Virus record (IMG/VR): IMGVR_UViG_2778261428_000001
Origin: a virus
Taxonomy: Duplodnaviria; Heunggongvirae; Uroviricota; Caudoviricetes
DNA: 46,366 nucleotides
Strand: one strand, 5' to 3'
The translations under genes were made by a program, and so were the position numbers. The notes beneath the pieces were generated by a model. That model was not told the DNA's origin. It worked only from the letters and a program-made list of their open reading frames with translations, and did not search any database. Shown piece by piece: positions 28,143-41,616 of the stretch. Positions within the stretch are counted from its first letter, which is position 1. Each line of letters begins with the position of its first letter.

Positions 28143-28345
28143 ATTTTCACTTTTTTAAATCCAACGACAGACGGCTGGCATTTAAGTATTGTGAAATATT
28201 ATCAAATGTAATCATCATTGATTTACAAAAGATACATTTTGCCCCGAAAGGATTCATGTCAGAAACATCAAAAGATGATGTTCTATACTGGGAACCATGA
28301 CAACACGGGCATCTAAAGTGAATATGGTTTGTAATATTGTCTACC

Positions 28346-28558
28346 TCAAAGCGCCACTACATGAACAGCGGCAGGACCTTTAGGTCCGTTCTCAATACCA
28401 AATTCAACTTCCTGATTCTCAGTTAATGTTTTGAAATCGTTGCTCTGAATTGCTGAGAAATGGACAAACACATCTTTGCTGCCATCTTTCGGCGTGATGA
28501 AACCAAAACCTTTTTCAGGGTTAAACCATTTCACTAAACCAGTCATTTTGTTAGACAT
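28346..28558 (-). CDS. cspI: Cold shock protein CspI (CspA family)
   Basis: 70 aa, [38 protein letters not shown]... with RNP1/RNP2 motifs; recalled match to CspI. Confidence 0.9.
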
Positions 28559-28921
28559 AATTATTACCTTTTGAAGAAATTAGCCCTTGGGCAGAATGGT
28601 CCGAAAAAAAAATATCAGAGAGAAAAACCAACAAGGAAATCTCAAGAGGTACAAATAATAAAATTATAACAATGACTGCTTCAGATAAATTTGTAACAAA
28701 CCAGAACACCATTAACGCATGATTAACCACCCATAGCAAGGATTACTTTTGTAAAGAAAAACACAGCAATGAAAGAATAGCTTTATTTATTAATAAAACG
28801 TGTCATTCTGATTAAGACCTTTTATCTTACCCTTAAGATTTCAGGAATTTTGGCTCATGGAAGAGTCCTTTTTATTTAAATTTTACATTCCGCGATGTAA
28901 ATGTTCCGATTTAATATTACC

Positions 28922-30949: not shown

Positions 30950-31230
30950 GAGATTGTGGTGCTTTTTGTGGGAGTCATCCACTTACGCACTTTGTTTTGC
31001 GATGCCAGCAGTTAGCTTCTGCTGTGAAACTATTCATGCAGCAAACCTGCACTTCACCACAATGGTTAGCATACTTTTCCTGATTAAGATTTTGCCAAAT
31101 ATGCTGGCCATTGTTTCATGTATTGGACCTCCTTACTTTTTATTAAAGAGATCCAATATTCACTACTCTGTCCGTATCTCTACTCAGGCATCAGCCTTCT
31201 TCGTTATCGTATACAGACGAGCGATGAATT

Positions 31231-31446
31231 TTAATCAGTAATGATGACATTTGCTGCTGCAGGACCTTTAGCACCACTCTCTATAGAGAAGGTAACCTTT
31301 TGACCTTCAAATAAGGTTCGATAATTATCATTCTGAATCGCAGAAAAATGCACAAACACATCTTTACTACCATCAACAGGAGAAATAAAGCCGAAACCTT
31401 TATCAGCGTTAAACCATTTTACTAAACCAGTCATTTTATTTGACAT
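31231..31446 (-). CDS. cspB: Cold shock protein (CspA family), CspB-like
   Basis: 71 aa, [38 protein letters not shown]...; position next to cspF remnant and Q as in Qin. Confidence 0.8.
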
Positions 31447-31756
31447 TCTACATTCCTTAACTTGAGCCTTTCGGCATAAATGGTTTGCATAACAGAAACG
31501 ACTTCGTACTTAATTGGAGAGACTCAAAGAAGGAATAAGTGAATAACACCTGAAATGAGAACTGCTTTAGTAAACTACTTCGTATATCGTCTGTTCTTCA
31601 AACCGACGCAGTCATTAACTCATAGTTGAACATATGAAGCAATGTTTATTTTAGACATCCAGCCACCTTCAACCCTATCAAAAAAGTAGTTTTCTCCAGG
31701 AACGTGTGTATGGTGCACCAGGTTATCAGTATTAAGGAGTTTTTCTGTCCCCTAAA

Positions 31757-34751: not shown

Positions 34752-34907
34752 TTACTCCTCAGGTTCGTAAGCTGTGAAGACAGCGACCTCCGTCTGGCCG
34801 GTTCGGATTCGTACCTCGCAGAGGTCTTTCCTCGTTACCAGTGCCGTCACTATGACGGTTAAACAGATGACGATCAGGGCGATTAACATCGCCTTTTGCT
34901 GCTTCAT
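34752..34907 (-). CDS. hokD: Hok-family membrane toxin (type I toxin)
   Basis: 51-aa product MKQQKAMLIALIVICLTVIVTALVTRKDLCEVRIRTGQTEVAVFTAYEPEE; the longer overlapping frame upstream is consistent with a mok-like leader ORF. Confidence 0.85.
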   Translation of the reverse strand: MKQQKAMLIALIVICLTVIVTALVTRKDLCEVRIRTGQTEVAVFTAYEPEE

Positions 34908-35535
34908 AGCCTGCTTCTCCTTGCCTTCCGGCACGTAAGAGGCTAACCTACATGTGTCTAGCATGAAATTGGCCTCAGATTAATGTTAAGCGTCTTGCCG
35001 GACGCGTAATGTTAACTGGGGCTTTTCTCTATCTGCCTTTGGTGTTCATGCCTGAGGCAGATAGCCTCAAGCACCCGCAGCAATTCTACTTAACTCACGT
35101 CACCTCGCCAATATAAAATCAATCAGAAAGGCGATCCGTAAGAACAACAGCAAGGCAATAAATTGCCATTACAGCCGCAATAGCTAGCGCACATTTGAGA
35201 ACCAGCACGACAACCTCCTGTATTGGACGTACACCAGTCCTGATGAATATGAGGCTGTCTCGTCAGTGATTCAATACAACTATTGGGTATAGTTTCTCTG
35301 ATTTTTTCTGTGGAAATGGGGCTCAACCACTAGTCACCACCAGCACTTCTTTTAATACGCAAAGTCCGACACAAGCTAACCTTCTAGTCCGCTTTGAGCG
35401 AGGAGCGGAAGTTTATAGACATTTCTTGCACTGCGTTGTCTAATCAATTAGGAGCTGGTAACGTGCCCTGAGTAAATAAGCCCGCATATACGGGCGCTAT
35501 GTACGCTCTGTTTTGTATGGTGCAAAGTGCCCCGT

Positions 35536-37350
35536 CTATCTGAAACGCTCAAACAGTGCAACCATTCCTTCAGGAGCGATATCTCTGACCTGGGCTCCTT
35601 GCCGCTCAACCCACTTACCAGCTATATGTGAAGGGGTATCCTGACCTAAAATTTCGAAGACGAAAACCGTCTTATCGAAGTATCGAACGCATTTAAGATG
35701 AGTGTTTATGTAGGACTTAAGCGGTTCTGAAAGTCCTGAGCGTCCTACCCGATCAGAGATGTCTTGGAACATCTGGTCAAGGTTCTTTCCAGCGTGGTTC
35801 GCTTCGTGATCAACACCAGTTATATGGAAGCCGTTATAAGATAAAGCCTTGCTTCCGAAAATCTCCTGAACTCTTGTTGCAGTATGCGCATTTTCAGCAA
35901 CCCCTACAAGAACATAGCCCTTGTGTCCTCTGCCGATATTAGCAATAGCAGCGCAGGTCTCCATAATTTTTTCGAAGGAGCGTTCATCAAAGGAAGGTGA
36001 TGGGTCTAAAGTATAGAAACCTTGTTTAAAATCGTAGGCCGCCTGCTCAGTTATTGAGTTAGTGAGTAAATTTTGGAGCTTCGTGATCCAATGAACTTTT
36101 GCAGGATCTGGATTTTGATCGTTTTCAAAAAAGCCCTGAATCCAACCAATTATTGAATCGACCATTCTACTCCGGTTGTCAGCCCCCCATCTCCCTCCAT
36201 CTTGAACCTGAATATTCCTACCGCAATCTTTCAGCCGCCCAATGAGGCCCGCACTATCTGAAACCACCATACCCCTTTTAATTATCAGGTCATGCATGGC
36301 GAGAAAGACCACCTGAAAGTAACGGGGGACTGGATTACCACCATTTCCGTTAGGAAAAATCAAACCAGAGAATGTCGTTTGAGCCTGACTAAGAAGTAGG
36401 ATTATCGCATCATGTACTCTTTGATAATCAAGATCGACTAGCTCCCCGGTTCTCTTTTTAATAGCTTGATCAATCGCTTCGAATCTTGCTTTGCTGGCTA
36501 AAGCTTCCGGGGATATTGCTCCATAGTAGTCATCTAGAAGCTCTGTACGCGAGGCCAGAGGTTTGTCAGAAACCATATAAGCAAGAATGTCCGCCACTAT
36601 CTCTTCATCCCGGCTCTGTCTTAACTGCTCCTTCGTCAATATTCCGTTAACAATCCAGAAGACGCTATCGGCACTAATGCCGTAGTCTAAATCCTTGTTC
36701 GTGATGCTAATTTTTTTCATCTCGCTTAAGAGCAAGAGATCCGCGTTAGATGTGTCACCACGAACTCTTGCGGAGATCTTCCGAACACATTCCGCAAACA
36801 CATTTGTAGCACCTGCTGCACGCAACTCCTGTCGTGAGAGCTGACGTCCACCTGAGTTAATTCGCCTGAACACTTCCTCAACTGAGTCTCTCTCGGCTGC
36901 TTCATAAATTGAAAGCGGGACAGGATATGATGCTATTGCAAGACACTGGCTTCGATCAAGGAGTGGCATCTTCTGATCAATGACTCCGCGATCTAATAGG
37001 TCTTTCGTCGTCGCGAACGTATTTAAATCAAAGTAGAATCCATTAAATGAAAAATCGTTCGAGATAAAAGACATGATGGCATTCATACGCTGCATCCCAT
37101 CAATAATCTCGAGAGTGCCGTCTTTTCTCCCAAGAGGTTCTGCTAACAAAATGATAGGTATCGGGAATCCCTTGATTATCGAGTCAATAAAATTTTGTTT
37201 TTCCTCAATAGTCCAAATCAATTTACGTTGATACTGTCGATTCACAACGTATTTTTTATCCTGATAGTTGATAAACACTCGCTCAACTTGTTCGCCACGA
37301 ACTATTAGTTCTTGTTGTAACGTTGCCATTATGTTGCCGTCCTGAGCCAT
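35536..37350 (-). CDS. DUF262 (ParB/GmrS-like) domain protein with probable Schlafen/AlbA_2-like C-terminal domain; candidate anti-phage defence or type IV restriction-like enzyme
   Basis: 604 aa; N-terminal DUF262 signature (NRQYQRKLIWTIEEKQNFIDSIIKGFPIPIILL ... LEIIDGMQRMNAI); C-terminal segment resembling AlbA_2 core (ANIGRGHKGYVLVGVAENAH); bounded by AT-rich tracts (37351..37765 and 34965..35535). Confidence 0.7.
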   Translation of the reverse strand: MAQDGNIMATLQQELIVRGEQVERVFINYQDKKYVVNRQYQRKLIWTIEEKQNFIDSIIKGFPIPIILLAEPLGRKDGTLEIIDGMQRMNAIMSFISNDFSFNGFYFDLNTFATTKDLLDRGVIDQKMPLLDRSQCLAIASYPVPLSIYEAAERDSVEEVFRRINSGGRQLSRQELRAAGATNVFAECVRKISARVRGDTSNADLLLLSEMKKISITNKDLDYGISADSVFWIVNGILTKEQLRQSRDEEIVADILAYMVSDKPLASRTELLDDYYGAISPEALASKARFEAIDQAIKKRTGELVDLDYQRVHDAIILLLSQAQTTFSGLIFPNGNGGNPVPRYFQVVFLAMHDLIIKRGMVVSDSAGLIGRLKDCGRNIQVQDGGRWGADNRSRMVDSIIGWIQGFFENDQNPDPAKVHWITKLQNLLTNSITEQAAYDFKQGFYTLDPSPSFDERSFEKIMETCAAIANIGRGHKGYVLVGVAENAHTATRVQEIFGSKALSYNGFHITGVDHEANHAGKNLDQMFQDISDRVGRSGLSEPLKSYINTHLKCVRYFDKTVFVFEILGQDTPSHIAGKWVERQGAQVRDIAPEGMVALFERFR

Positions 37351-37765: not shown

Positions 37766-38167
37766 TTATCCCTGATAAAATGCCAGTATGCGCTGCATAA
37801 CTTCACTCATCCGGCACTCGCGACAGATTATGTTTAGGCGACTGTCGTAGCGACGTATTTCTCCATCAGGTAACGACCAGATAAGGTCCGGATCAACCAC
37901 AGCTGTTTTCTTCACCTTTGCCCTCGAGAGTTTTTTGCGGGCGTTTTGCCAGTCCTTACGCGCCTGTTCAGACGGGAATAACCCGTAGCCGGAGTTGTAT
38001 ACATCGCCACTGGCTACCAGCTCTCTGGCAAGAACGCTCATCAGATATCTAGTCGCACCTGTTTTAGCTTCCAGTTGCCGTAACGTCTCACGACCGCTCT
38101 GGCGCACGAGTTCCACCACCTGCCCTTTAATTTTTTCCCGCTCTTCTTGTGTAAAAACTTTTGCCAC
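37766..38167 (-). CDS. Hypothetical protein (position of replication protein P or nin-region gene)
   Basis: 133-aa basic ORF downstream of the O-like gene; no family recognised. Confidence 0.35.
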   Translation of the reverse strand: MAKVFTQEEREKIKGQVVELVRQSGRETLRQLEAKTGATRYLMSVLARELVASGDVYNSGYGLFPSEQARKDWQNARKKLSRAKVKKTAVVDPDLIWSLPDGEIRRYDSRLNIICRECRMSEVMQRILAFYQG

Positions 38168-38207
38168 AAGTCCCCCTTAAAATTACCTCATGACCTGAAA
38201 TCAAAAC

Positions 38208-39173
38208 TTATCCTCTGAAACCAGGCGGAATTTCTGTATCCGGTTCAGAAATATGATTAACACAACGCTGTACAGGTGAACGCCCTAGGCGGATGACCAG
38301 TTCGTCCCATTTTTCGCGGAGCTTTGACGGGCTCATGATGTTTTTTACCCAGAATGGATCCCGCTGTACCCGACCAAACATTTCACAAATTTGTCTGTGG
38401 CTTCTGCCATCCAGCATCCGCATTGTGCGCACATCATTGGCCCAGACAGTCCAGTTAGGCTCTTTTGGTCGCATGATCTCGCCATCATCACTGGCGGCCT
38501 GTTCGTAGAGACCCACGATCCGCCCCCATATCCACTGCGCACACGCCAGATCCTCCTGGCTACCCCACTGGCGTTTTTTCGCACTAAACACAACTGCGCC
38601 AGGGTGCCGGATTAAAAAATCCTGTTCAGCCGTCTGCGGGTCCGGTTGCGAAGCTTCCGGACGAAAAGTGTTTTTATTCTCTGTAGTAATCTCTGTTGTA
38701 TTCTCTGTAGGATCATCGGGCCATTTTGACCCGATGACATTGGGTCGTTTTGAACCAATGGAGCGTTTCATTTTGACCTCTTCCATCGTGTCATTTTGAC
38801 CTGATGGAGCGGCGCATTTTGAACCGATGGATTCGCTCAATTTGCCATCATCTAAAAGCTCGCTCCCATAGTTAATCGTGTAGAAATTGGTCATATCGCG
38901 CTTTGATTTATTGAGCTTTTCACAACGCAAAAGCCCCAGCGTTTTCAGACTTGCAAACGCGCGCTTTAACGTTGACTCTGACCAGAATGGAAACTGTTCC
39001 AGCCATTGTTCCGTTGTGTTGTAAATCCAGCGAACACCATCACATTCCATGCCGGAATTGGTATCTCTCAACCAGTAATGCAACTGCTGCAACACAATGG
39101 CTTCATTTAAGCCAATCTTCATCGCAAGCTGTGTGTTTATAACCAGTGGGCGTTCAGCAAAAAGAAGGCTCAT
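38208..39173 (-). CDS. Replication initiation protein (lambda O-like, iteron-binding N-terminus plus C-terminal helicase-loader recruitment domain)
   Basis: N-terminal winged-helix-like region; origin iterons lie inside the gene and encode a repeated IGSK peptide; start taken at an internal Met after the upstream gene's stop (ORF track extends to 39227). Confidence 0.6.
   Translation of the reverse strand: MSLLFAERPLVINTQLAMKIGLNEAIVLQQLHYWLRDTNSGMECDGVRWIYNTTEQWLEQFPFWSESTLKRAFASLKTLGLLRCEKLNKSKRDMTNFYTINYGSELLDDGKLSESIGSKCAAPSGQNDTMEEVKMKRSIGSKRPNVIGSKWPDDPTENTTEITTENKNTFRPEASQPDPQTAEQDFLIRHPGAVVFSAKKRQWGSQEDLACAQWIWGRIVGLYEQAASDDGEIMRPKEPNWTVWANDVRTMRMLDGRSHRQICEMFGRVQRDPFWVKNIMSPSKLREKWDELVIRLGRSPVQRCVNHISEPDTEIPPGFRG
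38720..38835. repeat. Replication origin iterons (5 direct repeats, about 23-bp period) inside the O-like gene
   Basis: cattttgacccgatgaca / cgttttgaaccaatggag / cattttgacctcttccatcg / cattttgacctgatggag / cattttgaaccgatggat, starting near 38722, 38745, 38769, 38792 and 38815; a second short repeat ttctctgtag occurs twice at 38686-38710. Confidence 0.6.
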
Positions 39174-39675
39174 AATTCCATCCAGCTTTTTGTTGGTATT
39201 GCTGTCGATACGCAAGTTTGAAAGCAATTGCTTTTTCTATAAGTTCGTCAGTTTCACGATCCACTACGGCAGGATCAGCAAAAAGCAGTCCGGACTCCAC
39301 CACATCGCCATATTCTTTGTTTAACCCGGCGATCATGTACGTGATGCTTTTTCCGTCACTAATTTCACGATACAACCTGAAATCATTAATCCGGATAGCC
39401 TCCATAATTGCAGGCACTAGCGCCGTGAACTTTTCACGCTTATCCCTAGTGTCGATAGCCTTCCAGCGTTCGAATATCTTCACTCGATTAACGCCAAGCG
39501 CTCGCTGATCAACCGCGCCACCTTCATCTGTGACACGCTGAACATCGATGTTCGGGCGCTCTTTCAAAGCCCAGAATGCTTCAGTGATTAATATCGTCGC
39601 CTGCTCCTGTGTCATTCCTGGTCGACATATCCAGGCATCCAGAGCCTCACGAGCCTGTTCAGGAGTGATTTTCAT
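39154..39675 (-). CDS. Hypothetical protein in the cII-equivalent position (possibly YdaT-like)
   Basis: 173-aa ORF immediately downstream of the cro-like dicC, translationally coupled; family not confidently recognised. Confidence 0.4.
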   Translation of the reverse strand: MKITPEQAREALDAWICRPGMTQEQATILITEAFWALKERPNIDVQRVTDEGGAVDQRALGVNRVKIFERWKAIDTRDKREKFTALVPAIMEAIRINDFRLYREISDGKSITYMIAGLNKEYGDVVESGLLFADPAVVDRETDELIEKAIAFKLAYRQQYQQKAGWNYEPSFC

Positions 39676-39886
39676 TGTTCAACCGCCCCGCCCGCTTCGT
39701 CTTACGATATTCGTCATAAACTTTGGGATCATACTGAAGCTCCCCGCCAGATGCCTCCTGTAGACGCATCGCGCGACCTTCAGGAACTAGCTCTTGCCAT
39801 TGAGAAACAGCAGATGGGTCAACGCCAGCAGCTTTCGCTACTTTGGCTTTCGTACCGTAAAAATTAATTACGTCTGATTTAAACAT
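39659..39886 (-). CDS. dicC: Cro-like repressor DicC
   Basis: C-terminal region LVPEGRAMRLQEASGGELQYDPKVYDEYRKTKRAGRLNNENHS recalled as DicC; divergent from dicA; start taken at MFKSD (ORF track extends to 39913). Confidence 0.7.
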   Translation of the reverse strand: MFKSDVINFYGTKAKVAKAAGVDPSAVSQWQELVPEGRAMRLQEASGGELQYDPKVYDEYRKTKRAGRLNNENHS

Positions 39887-39963
39887 CGCACCTCCAATAT
39901 TGAGTTTTCTCAATGCTAATCACTCAAGGAATCTCAAGTCAAGGGTTATTAAGATATCTAAAT
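39887..39963. promoter_or_regulatory. Divergent promoter/operator region of the dicA-dicC immunity switch
   Basis: 77-bp intergenic region containing the inverted repeat ATTGAG-TTTT-CTCAAT (39899..39914) and repeated TCAAG(G) motifs. Confidence 0.45.
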
Positions 39964-40371
39964 ATGAACGAGAAAACTTTAGGTCAACGCATTAGAGAAA
40001 GACGTAAGCAGGTAGGCTTAAGTCAAAACGGTTTAAGCAAAGCTGCTGGCGTATCTGGCTCATCAATTTCATTATGGGAAAGTGACCATACAGCCCCGCG
40101 CGGGCAAAATTTGCATCGCCTCGCCGAGGTATTGCAATGTTCACCAACCTGGATACTGTTTGGCGACGAGGACAAAACACCAGCTCCCCCTGTTTCACTC
40201 GATAGTGCCTTAGACTTATCGGAAGATGAGTTAGAGATGCTGCGTTTGTATCGCGCACTTCCTAAATCAGAGCAACAAGCACAACTCAGCGAACTCCGCG
40301 CCCGCGTTGAGAATTTTAATCGCCTGTTCACCGAGCTATTAGAGGCTCGCAAACGCAACAAGCATCAATAA
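39964..40371 (+). CDS. dicA: cI-like HTH (XRE family) repressor DicA
   Basis: HTH segment LGQRIRERRKQVGLSQNGLSKAAGVSGSSISLWE and conserved C-terminal block (LQCSPTWILFGDEDK ... RARVENFNRLFTELLEARKR); start taken at MNEKTLG. Confidence 0.8.
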   Translation: MNEKTLGQRIRERRKQVGLSQNGLSKAAGVSGSSISLWESDHTAPRGQNLHRLAEVLQCSPTWILFGDEDKTPAPPVSLDSALDLSEDELEMLRLYRALPKSEQQAQLSELRARVENFNRLFTELLEARKRNKHQ

Positions 40372-41557: not shown

Positions 41558-41616
41558 TTTTCTGGTGACGTTTGGCGGTATCAGTTTTACTCCGTGACTG
41601 CTCTGCCGCCCTTTTT
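41558..41616 (+). ncRNA. dicF: DicF small regulatory RNA (ftsZ-targeting Hfq-dependent sRNA)
   Basis: Sequence tttctggtgacgtttggcggtatcagttttactccgtgactgctctgccgcccttttt recalled as the DicF RNA, ending in its intrinsic terminator; located between ydfC-like and dicB as in Qin. Confidence 0.8.

Follow-up and report, generated by a model that had tools for sequence, protein, structure and literature searches.

In lambdoid phages the replication origin (ori), made up of iterons and an AT-rich tract, sits in the middle of the initiator gene O, with four iterons in lambda and six in Shiga toxin (Stx) phages, and lambda-type O proteins bind A/T-rich single-stranded DNA (PMC7466680). The annotated iterons of lambda lie at 39034, 39054, 39078 and 39101 (spacing 20/24/23 bp) and read ATCCCTCAAAACGAGGGA and similar; they are followed by acacaaaagacactattacaaaagaaaaaagaaaagatt and then by the palindrome CAGAGAATTCTGGCGAATCCTCTG. 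Among plasmids, Rep proteins can bind the repeats of an unwinding element as single-stranded DNA, and those of RK2 and F bind a single strand of the 13-mer repeats (PMC10797057). We describe here an element of lambda-like build in a 46,366-nt stretch of caudoviral DNA (IMG/VR record IMGVR_UViG_2778261428_000001), hereafter the window. It lies inside an initiator gene and is very probably the vegetative replication origin of a Qin-like lambdoid prophage. A first-pass annotation of the window had proposed a lambda-type origin within an O-like gene, and that proposal is now supported by the anatomy of the element, its conservation, constraint at the DNA level and protein-DNA covariation. The gene and its two folded parts, as modelled with AlphaFold2 (AF2) and scored by predicted local distance difference test (pLDDT), are:

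38208-39173, minus strand: initiator gene ('O-like', 321 aa), likely start ATG 39173
38859-39173, minus strand: N-terminal winged-helix domain, aa 1-105 (AF2 pLDDT 85.7)
38286-38636, minus strand: helical C-terminal domain, ~aa 180-296 (helices in the AF2 model)

Residues are numbered on the 321-aa form from ATG 39173, the start used by the databases and by mEp460; by mechanical listing the open reading frame (ORF) reaches TTG 39227 (38208-39227, minus strand).

The iteron array

Six in-register 23-bp units, five clear and one degenerate, run along the gene strand from 38854 to 38716, spaced by 23/23/23/23/24 bp:

38832-38854, minus strand: iteron R0 (degenerate), tagatgATGGCAAATTGAgcgaa, 23 bp upstream of R1, 12-mer core matched with 3 mismatches
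38809-38831, minus strand: iteron R1, tccatcGGTTCAAAATGCgccgc, translated SIGSKC
38786-38808, minus strand: iteron R2, tccatcAGGTCAAAATGAcacga(tgg), dyad-symmetric, translated PSGQND in a second frame
38763-38785, minus strand: iteron R3, tggaagAGGTCAAAATGAaacgc, translated EEVKMK in the third frame
38740-38762, minus strand: iteron R4, tccattGGTTCAAAACGAcccaa(tg), dyad-symmetric
38716-38738, minus strand: iteron R5, gtcatcGGGTCAAAATGGcccga(tga), the best palindrome, 24 bp from R4

Five repeats had been counted at first, and five good units are indeed there (R1-R5, 38831-38716); the degenerate R0 adds a sixth and carries the array about 20 bp past the end first assigned to it. The counterpart of R0 is well formed in relatives (GAGGTCAAAGTG). 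A 12-mer scan (AGGTCAAAATGA, at most 3 mismatches) places all six units, at ORF nt 326/349/372/395/418/442. The repeats are where they had been reported and go well beyond chance. A repeat finder returned families of 23-36 nt at 38714-38852, with spacings of 23/23/23 and 24/46/23, and Tandem Repeats Finder (TRF) detected arrays of period 23 (38748-38831) and period 12 (38678-38710). There are three exact copies of the 10-mer GGTCAAAATG, all within the array, and a search for it elsewhere in the 46-kb prophage found no further iteron copy. The best local autocorrelation of the initiator gene is 0.63, at lag 23, against a mean of 0.459 (standard deviation 0.056) for 123 control ORFs; five of these are themselves initiator genes, and among the remaining 118, used for control counts, just one reached 0.55.

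Dyad symmetry is clear in R2, R4 and R5 (e.g., CATCGGGTCAAAATGGCCCGATG), and the consensus core of the family is a perfect palindrome, GGGTCA-AAA-TGACCC. Since 23 is not a multiple of 3, one DNA core is translated in all three frames. The repeated IGSK peptide of the first-pass annotation thus comes from just three of the six units, R1, R4 and R5, while R2 and R3 give the other peptides listed above. The repeats are a feature of the DNA and not of the peptide. Together the array, the 12-mers and the palindrome described below span ORF nt 320-534, or aa ~107-178, and this ori-coding segment coincides with the stretch that AF2 leaves unstructured (aa 108-175, pLDDT 24-47) between the folded N-domain and the helical C-domain. 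The full-length AF2 model, built on a 9-sequence alignment, has a pLDDT of 54 and served for domain boundaries and disorder only. DnaA involvement is not indicated, because no DnaA box with at most 1 mismatch was found within 38101-39400.

Length variants occur in nature. Two from E. coli, P0012 and P0019 (length variants P0019-P0023), have a 31-aa (93-nt) in-frame deletion that removes four iterons, R1-R4, and leaves one; such deletion variants are probably ori-defective prophages. Extra 12-mers are found in L009, P0100 and L011, with four or five units in place of three. These variants of the iterons and the 12-mers show recombination of repeats, as expected for such arrays.

Conservation of the array

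A scan of one genome per species gave 80 loci, with 77 homologous ORFs long enough for comparison. The autocorrelation is strongest at lag 22-24 in 64 of the 77, almost all from ORF nt ~300-420, so that homologous initiator genes carry the array at the same position; among control ORFs from the same loci the count was 17/118. Absence of the repeats from homologous initiator genes had been named with the first-pass annotation as grounds for rejecting it, and this check did not refute it. The hosts of the homologues include Escherichia, Klebsiella, Pantoea, Xenorhabdus, Pseudomonas, Photobacterium, Acinetobacter, Staphylococcus, Limosilactobacillus and Clostridia, and the N-domain is also found in phages of Staphylococcus, Bacillus, Listeria, Lactobacillus (mv4), Pseudomonas (AF) and Erwinia (PEp14).

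What stays constant across the family is the position of the array, its copy number (4-6) and its period; the core varies. It is GGTCAAAATGAC in the group of the window and GGACAAtTTGTCC, GGGCAAaTTGC(A/C)C, GGATCAAAATGATCC or CGACAAATTGTCG in others, and all these subfamily cores are palindromes of the form GGnCAAwwTGnCC. In relatives from Klebsiella, Citrobacter, Enterobacter and Xenorhabdus an unrelated C-domain is joined to the shared N-domain, iterons and 12-mers, so that the DNA-binding domain and its sites travel as one module.

Family initiators are also carried by circular, non-mobilizable 'plasmid' records of ~40 kb (NZ_CP081704.1, NZ_CP095244.1, NZ_CP074176.1, NZ_CP009637.1 and NZ_CP031279.1) from E. 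coli, Klebsiella, Enterobacter, B. cereus and S. hominis. These are probably excised or episomal phage genomes, and are no proof of a minimal replicon. The plasmid collection also holds one 16-kb phage-fragment circle with a different N-domain.

A+T-rich 12-mers and palindrome

The iterons are followed on the gene strand by three further features:

38664-38712, minus strand: A+T-rich, purine-skewed 49-bp segment directly after R5 (GC 0.31 versus 0.48 for the gene)
38674-38709, minus strand: three tandem 12-mers, TACAGAGAATAC / AACAGAGATTAC / TACAGAGAATAA, within the A+T-rich segment
38640-38662, minus strand: imperfect palindrome GTCCGGAAGC-TTC-GCAACCGGAC, 10-bp arms, 8/10 positions pairing, in the place held in lambda ori by the right-arm palindrome

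The motif TTCTCTGTAG had been described as duplicated and as preceding the repeats. The gene being on the minus strand, it lies downstream of the iterons, and it forms three tandem 12-mers. A GATC stands at the junction of the A+T-rich segment with R5 (38711). We propose the A+T-rich segment with its 12-mers as a putative DNA-unwinding element.

Across loci whose N-domains are 53-79% identical and whose C-domains are sometimes unrelated, the segment GATCyTACAGAGAwTACwACAGAGAkTACTACAGAGAwTA is almost invariant. Regardless of iteron type, 47 of 62 loci have at least two CAGAGA units within ~110 nt 3' of the last iteron, and the 12-nt spacing of these units holds where checked; Pseudomonas, Photobacterium, Staphylococcus, Lactobacillus and an Anaerolineales metagenome-assembled genome are represented. 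An argument from reading frame was not decisive, because most homologues translate the 12-mers in one frame (TExT), and a synonymous-codon test was used instead. Within the 12-mer motif Glu is encoded by GAG in 103/103 cases, against 356/745 elsewhere in the same 39 ORFs (p 1e-30), and Thr by ACA/ACT in 216/217, against 279/665 (p 2e-64). In eight loci the first 12-mer is translated in another frame. With codon choice fixed and another frame in use in these eight, the 12-mer sequence itself is constrained, beyond AT-richness or the TExT peptide. This points to the 12-mers as a sequence-specific cis element conserved across the initiator family, Firmicutes included.

In 31 of 58 distinct homologue ORFs the 12-mers are followed by a palindrome scoring at least 7, compared with 16 of 541 control segments. 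Their sequences vary among homologues, with a near-copy of the lambda palindrome in L011 and L013.

N-terminal domain and proposed iteron recognition

The AF2 model of the N-domain (85-sequence alignment) is a winged helix of aa 14-100 with the topology H-H-b-b-H-H-b-b (H14-20, H22-37, b42-44, b47-51, H54-60, H66-79, b82-85, b97-100). One codon is of particular interest:

38973-38975, minus strand: codon 67 (Ser67), at the start of the predicted recognition helix aa 66-79, covarying with the iteron half-site

Among 42 distinct N-domains, the mutual information between residue 67 and the variable dinucleotide of the half-site is 1.85 bits (z=12.7; next column z=6.2). The pairings are:

residue 67 Ser: half-site GGTCA
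residue 67 Asp: half-site GGGCA / GTGCA
residue 67 Lys, Arg: half-site GGACA / CGACA
residue 67 Asn: half-site ACCCA
residue 67 Ala, Thr: half-site GATCA

The Ser67 pairing is seen in enterics and in one locus each from Staphylococcus and Serratia, and the Lys pairing in enterics and Clostridia. The sequences are not independent of one another, yet recurrence of the pairings in such distant lineages makes shared ancestry alone an unlikely explanation of the covariation, which is the strongest computational support that the N-domain reads the iterons. Core similarity also tracks N-domain similarity (Mantel r=0.37, reached by 0/2000 permutations).

The N-domain belongs to none of the families searched. 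At E<=0.01 Pfam assigned the whole protein to no family, and for the isolated N-domain it returned nothing relevant at E<=10; searches with Pfam and NCBIfam placed neither the whole protein nor either half in a family. Filing the protein as Phage_rep_O, DnaD or replisome organizer was ruled out, as there was no Pfam/NCBIfam match; the DnaD and replisome-organizer labels of relatives occur in PHROG and GenBank names only, and no DnaD or Phage_rep_org domain was found with Pfam/NCBIfam. In Foldseek the best solved matches of the N-domain are 4pql, 5kbj (a Rep-DNA complex) and 4pt7 (E 1.8e-3 to 6.5e-2, template modeling (TM) score ~0.5), with generic winged helix-turn-helix (wHTH) regulators ranking after these N-domains of staphylococcal RepA_N plasmid initiators.

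C-terminal domain, tail and proposed helicase loading

At 34% identity over 148 aa (E 3e-27), BLASTP pairs aa 147-294 of the initiator with residues 135-270 of lambda O, and the aligned stretch holds the motif block WANDxRxM...DGRxH...FW..N..SP.KLR.KW. On this alignment the C-domain is a true homologue of that of lambda O. The N-terminal 146 residues gave no BLASTP alignment to lambda O. The name 'O-like' used in the first-pass annotation therefore suits the C-terminal half and the architecture only. The protein ends in a distinct tail:

38211-38261, minus strand: C-terminal tail VNHISEPDTEIPPGFRG (last 17 residues), near-copy of the E. coli DnaT C-terminus VNTVSEPDSQIPPGFRG

Similarity to DnaT does not extend beyond the tail, the last 20-21 residues being those that align (NF002770, 16.2 bits versus a cut-off of 201; PDB 2ru8, 6aep, 9zbt). 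Sequence search of solved structures otherwise gave a YteR segment match, judged spurious. The DnaT-like tail is why RAST names the mEp460 homologues 'Primosomal protein I'.

No lambda-P-like gene is present in the locus, where a DUF977 gene stands in the P position; a DnaC-like gene was not searched for. In the fetched loci, about 30 initiators end in ..(I/V)PxGF(R/K)(G/S), and these are all from Enterobacterales and lack a P homologue. Four of four initiators with a lambda-O-like ..W...(W/G)..L tail (L010, L017, L042, L086) precede a lambda-P homologue, with overlapping stop and start. The P homologue in L086 is PF06992, and the P-partnered tail of this type is ..DWNSADGWEDVL. Tail type thus co-varies with the loader, DnaT-like tails occurring without P and lambda-O-like tails with P.

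Prophage and gene setting

The window is an intact Qin-like lambdoid E. coli prophage, related to the cryptic K-12 prophage Qin. This assignment follows from DicF, sok and the cspA-type leaders and, further, from dicB, ydfA-D, rem and the insertion site in ydfJ. A copy of the initiator gene with 99.9% identity stands in a prophage inserted in ydfJ of E. coli 1EC213, which is complete from integrase to tail fibres and has dicB, DicF, hokD/sok, rem and cspA-type leaders aboard. ATCC 25922 has the prophage at 99.8% identity. The RNA features, all from Rfam, and the genes of the early-right region are:

41560-41611, plus strand: DicF RNA
34902-35076, minus strand: sok antitoxin of hokD
28319-28705 and 31215-31607, minus strand: two cspA-type thermoregulator leaders
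39913-40371, plus strand: cI-like repressor, early-right region
39913-39942, minus strand: pR-like sigma-70 promoter match upstream of cro, consensus match only
39659-39913, minus strand: P22-Cro/YdaS-like cro, early-right operon
39154-39675, minus strand: cII-like/YdaT protein, early-right operon
37766-38167, minus strand: DUF977 gene directly downstream of the initiator gene, early-right operon
35536-37350, minus strand: GmrSD_N/DUF262 gene, 604 aa, early-right region

Transcripts covering cro, the cII-like gene, the initiator gene and ori likely start at the pR-like promoter; the promoter match itself is not enriched over chance (1 match versus a mean of 2.1 in shuffles of the region). The upstream neighbours of the initiator gene bear the Pfam name 'YdaS/YdaT toxin', and by position and PHROG matches are cro and cII. 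Read from ATG 39173, the initiator gene shares its first 20 nt with the end of the cII-like/YdaT gene. The GmrSD_N/DUF262 protein is a type IV restriction-like defence candidate, encoded by a moron between the replication module and hokD; in mEp460_ev081 another gene takes its place.

The initiator matches phrog_391 'replication initiation O-like' (3.5e-92). PGAP labels it 'hypothetical protein', as do most of the top-listed E. coli genome records. Its gene is matched in 3026 of 5426 complete E. coli genomes, with at least 80% of the gene covered in 1777, and 362 records match it at 99% identity or more, the top-listed complete E. coli genomes at 99.8-99.9%. In the isolated phages HannyBb, mEp460_ev081 and PhiR42_1 it is 96-97% identical.

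Proposed mechanism and alternatives

We infer iteron binding by a dimer, the melting site, the helicase route and initiation at this site as follows. Transcription from the pR-like promoter would yield the 321-aa initiator, whose winged-helix N-domain would sit as a dimer on each palindromic core GGGTCA-AAA-TGACCC, with helix 66-79 in the major groove and Ser67 reading the T of GGTCA. Six sites, one per 23 bp (~2.2 helical turns), would give a wrapped complex resembling the O-some, and the strain would be released in the adjacent 49-bp A+T-rich segment, with the three 12-mers as the unwinding element; the 12-mers would probably be bound in a sequence-specific way as well, perhaps in single-stranded form. 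The lambda-O-like C-domain and the tail would bring in the host helicase. With no P protein, the DnaT-like tail may engage the host partner of the DnaT tail, so that DnaB is loaded via host DnaC.

Several points weigh against an origin of this kind. Literature searches turned up no mapped origin for this phage or for any phage with this N-domain, and no description of this origin. The N-domain is not that of lambda O, with no PF04492 match, and in structure it resembles known initiators weakly (E 1.8e-3, TM ~0.5). Thirteen of the 77 homologues, mostly short Bacillus-group proteins, are without a 22-24-bp array, and the palindrome of the window is degenerate, with 2 mismatches in its 10-bp arms. 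The codon test and the covariation use related sequences, so that their p-values overstate independence. Helicase recruitment is the weakest link: a keyword search of two DnaT structure papers found no function for the tail, and these papers call the mode of DnaB/DnaC recruitment unknown.

The iterons could instead be initiator sites for regulation, serving operon autorepression, titration or handcuffing, or the exclusion of related phages, with replication starting elsewhere in the prophage. Covariation, after all, proves a relationship between protein and DNA and not initiation; plasmid iterons double in copy control (PMC10797057), and ectopic copies of lambda ori are reported to inhibit phage growth (PMC4488673). 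We nonetheless hold regulation alone to be unlikely, given that conserved A+T-rich repeats and a palindrome abut the iterons in the lambda order, that the C-domain has its homologue in the half of lambda O that recruits the helicase, and that the 46-kb prophage has no other iteron copy and no other replication gene adjoining. A partition or packaging site was rejected, with the gene in the O position, a C-domain of O type and a region of unwinding type adjacent.

A repeated peptide in a flexible linker, arising by protein selection or slippage expansion and with no role for the DNA in cis, would account for the threefold IGSK, for the predicted disorder of the segment, for 12-mers read in one frame as TExT in most homologues, and for a varying copy number (31-aa deletions in P0012 and P0019; extra TENT in L009 and P0100). 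The 23-bp period, however, forces three peptides from one core, and the cores are palindromic; the array peptides differ among subfamilies where position and period stay fixed, and the codons of the 12-mers are fixed against the genes' own usage, with the other frame in use in 8 loci. The frame and codon analyses largely refute a peptide linker as the explanation, and we consider it very improbable. Chance similarity or an assembly artefact is hardly conceivable, as the sequence is found in the top-listed complete E. coli genomes (99.8-99.9%) and in phages HannyBb, mEp460 and PhiR42_1, and the 10-mer count and autocorrelation statistics exclude it.

A replication origin being the preferred reading, it is possible, if on balance doubtful, that the locus is the type example of a large unnamed phage initiator family, lacking a Pfam domain and ranging from Enterobacterales to Staphylococcus, Lactobacillus and Clostridia. 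The origin of such a family would have three modules: iterons read by a one-residue code (residue 67: Ser GGTCA, Asp GGGCA, Lys/Arg GGACA); an invariant TACAGAGAnTAC 12-mer unwinding element, recognised either by a host factor that is itself conserved or by the invariant portion of the N-domain; and an exchangeable tail that chooses the route of helicase loading, with DnaT mimicry in enterobacterial members making a P-type loader unnecessary. If true, the tail module would give the uncharacterised DnaT tail a function, the recruitment of helicase or loader. The family comparison yields a recognition rule, by which a swap at residue 67 should retarget the initiator, and a swap between DnaT-like and P-partnered tails offers a genetic handle on DnaT-type tails and helicase loading. 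Recognising the initiator and its embedded origin also improves prophage annotation and helps in judging replication competence.

Comparison with known systems

The likeness to the lambda arrangement that was first noted holds, iterons, A+T-rich stretch and palindrome following in the same order. Lambda ori and the proposed origin both lie mid-initiator gene, between the parts coding for the N- and C-domains, and in both the iterons are internally dyad-symmetric about a central A-tract (lambda ATCCCTCAAAACGAGGGA; here CATCGGGTCAAAATGGCCCGATG), are spaced by 20-24 bp, and are followed by an A-rich, purine-skewed tract and then by a palindrome, which is imperfect here. The gene order cro, cII-like gene, initiator is shared, as is a homologous C-domain (E 3e-27), and Stx phages 933W and P27 have six units, as here. 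The N-domain, which does not match PF04492, is of another family than that of lambda O. Three 12-mers, conserved in sequence and common to the entire initiator family, make up the AT-rich part; a P gene is missing, and the tail is DnaT-like and not a lambda O end. The origin of the window is predicted from sequence.

In the RepA_N plasmid initiators of Gram-positive bacteria the iterated origin is likewise placed centrally within the rep gene, where the N-domain binds it as a dimer. The plasmid initiators of this group (pSK41/pTZ2162 RepA; 4pql, 5kbj, 4pt7) are the best solved-structure matches to the N-domain, although the match is weak (16% identity, near that of a generic wHTH), with no sequence relationship or Pfam Rep match, and the C-domains are unrelated. 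The 12-mers resemble the 13-mers of oriC and RK2 oriV as short, A+T-rich tandem repeats (12-13 bp, 3-4 copies) beside initiator sites, in which the sequence, and not merely the composition, is conserved; here the sequence is TACAGAGAnTAC, it lies inside a coding region, and its role in unwinding is putative. With E. coli DnaT (primosomal protein I) the initiator shares its last 17 residues, near-identical (VNHISEPDTEIPPGFRG versus VNTVSEPDSQIPPGFRG), the remainder having no match.

The locus thus departs from the known lambda type in an N-domain outside the Pfam and NCBIfam models searched, in sequence-conserved 12-mers, and in a P-less, DnaT-tailed initiator. It would extend the lambda paradigm to a second DNA-binding scaffold and does not overturn current understanding.

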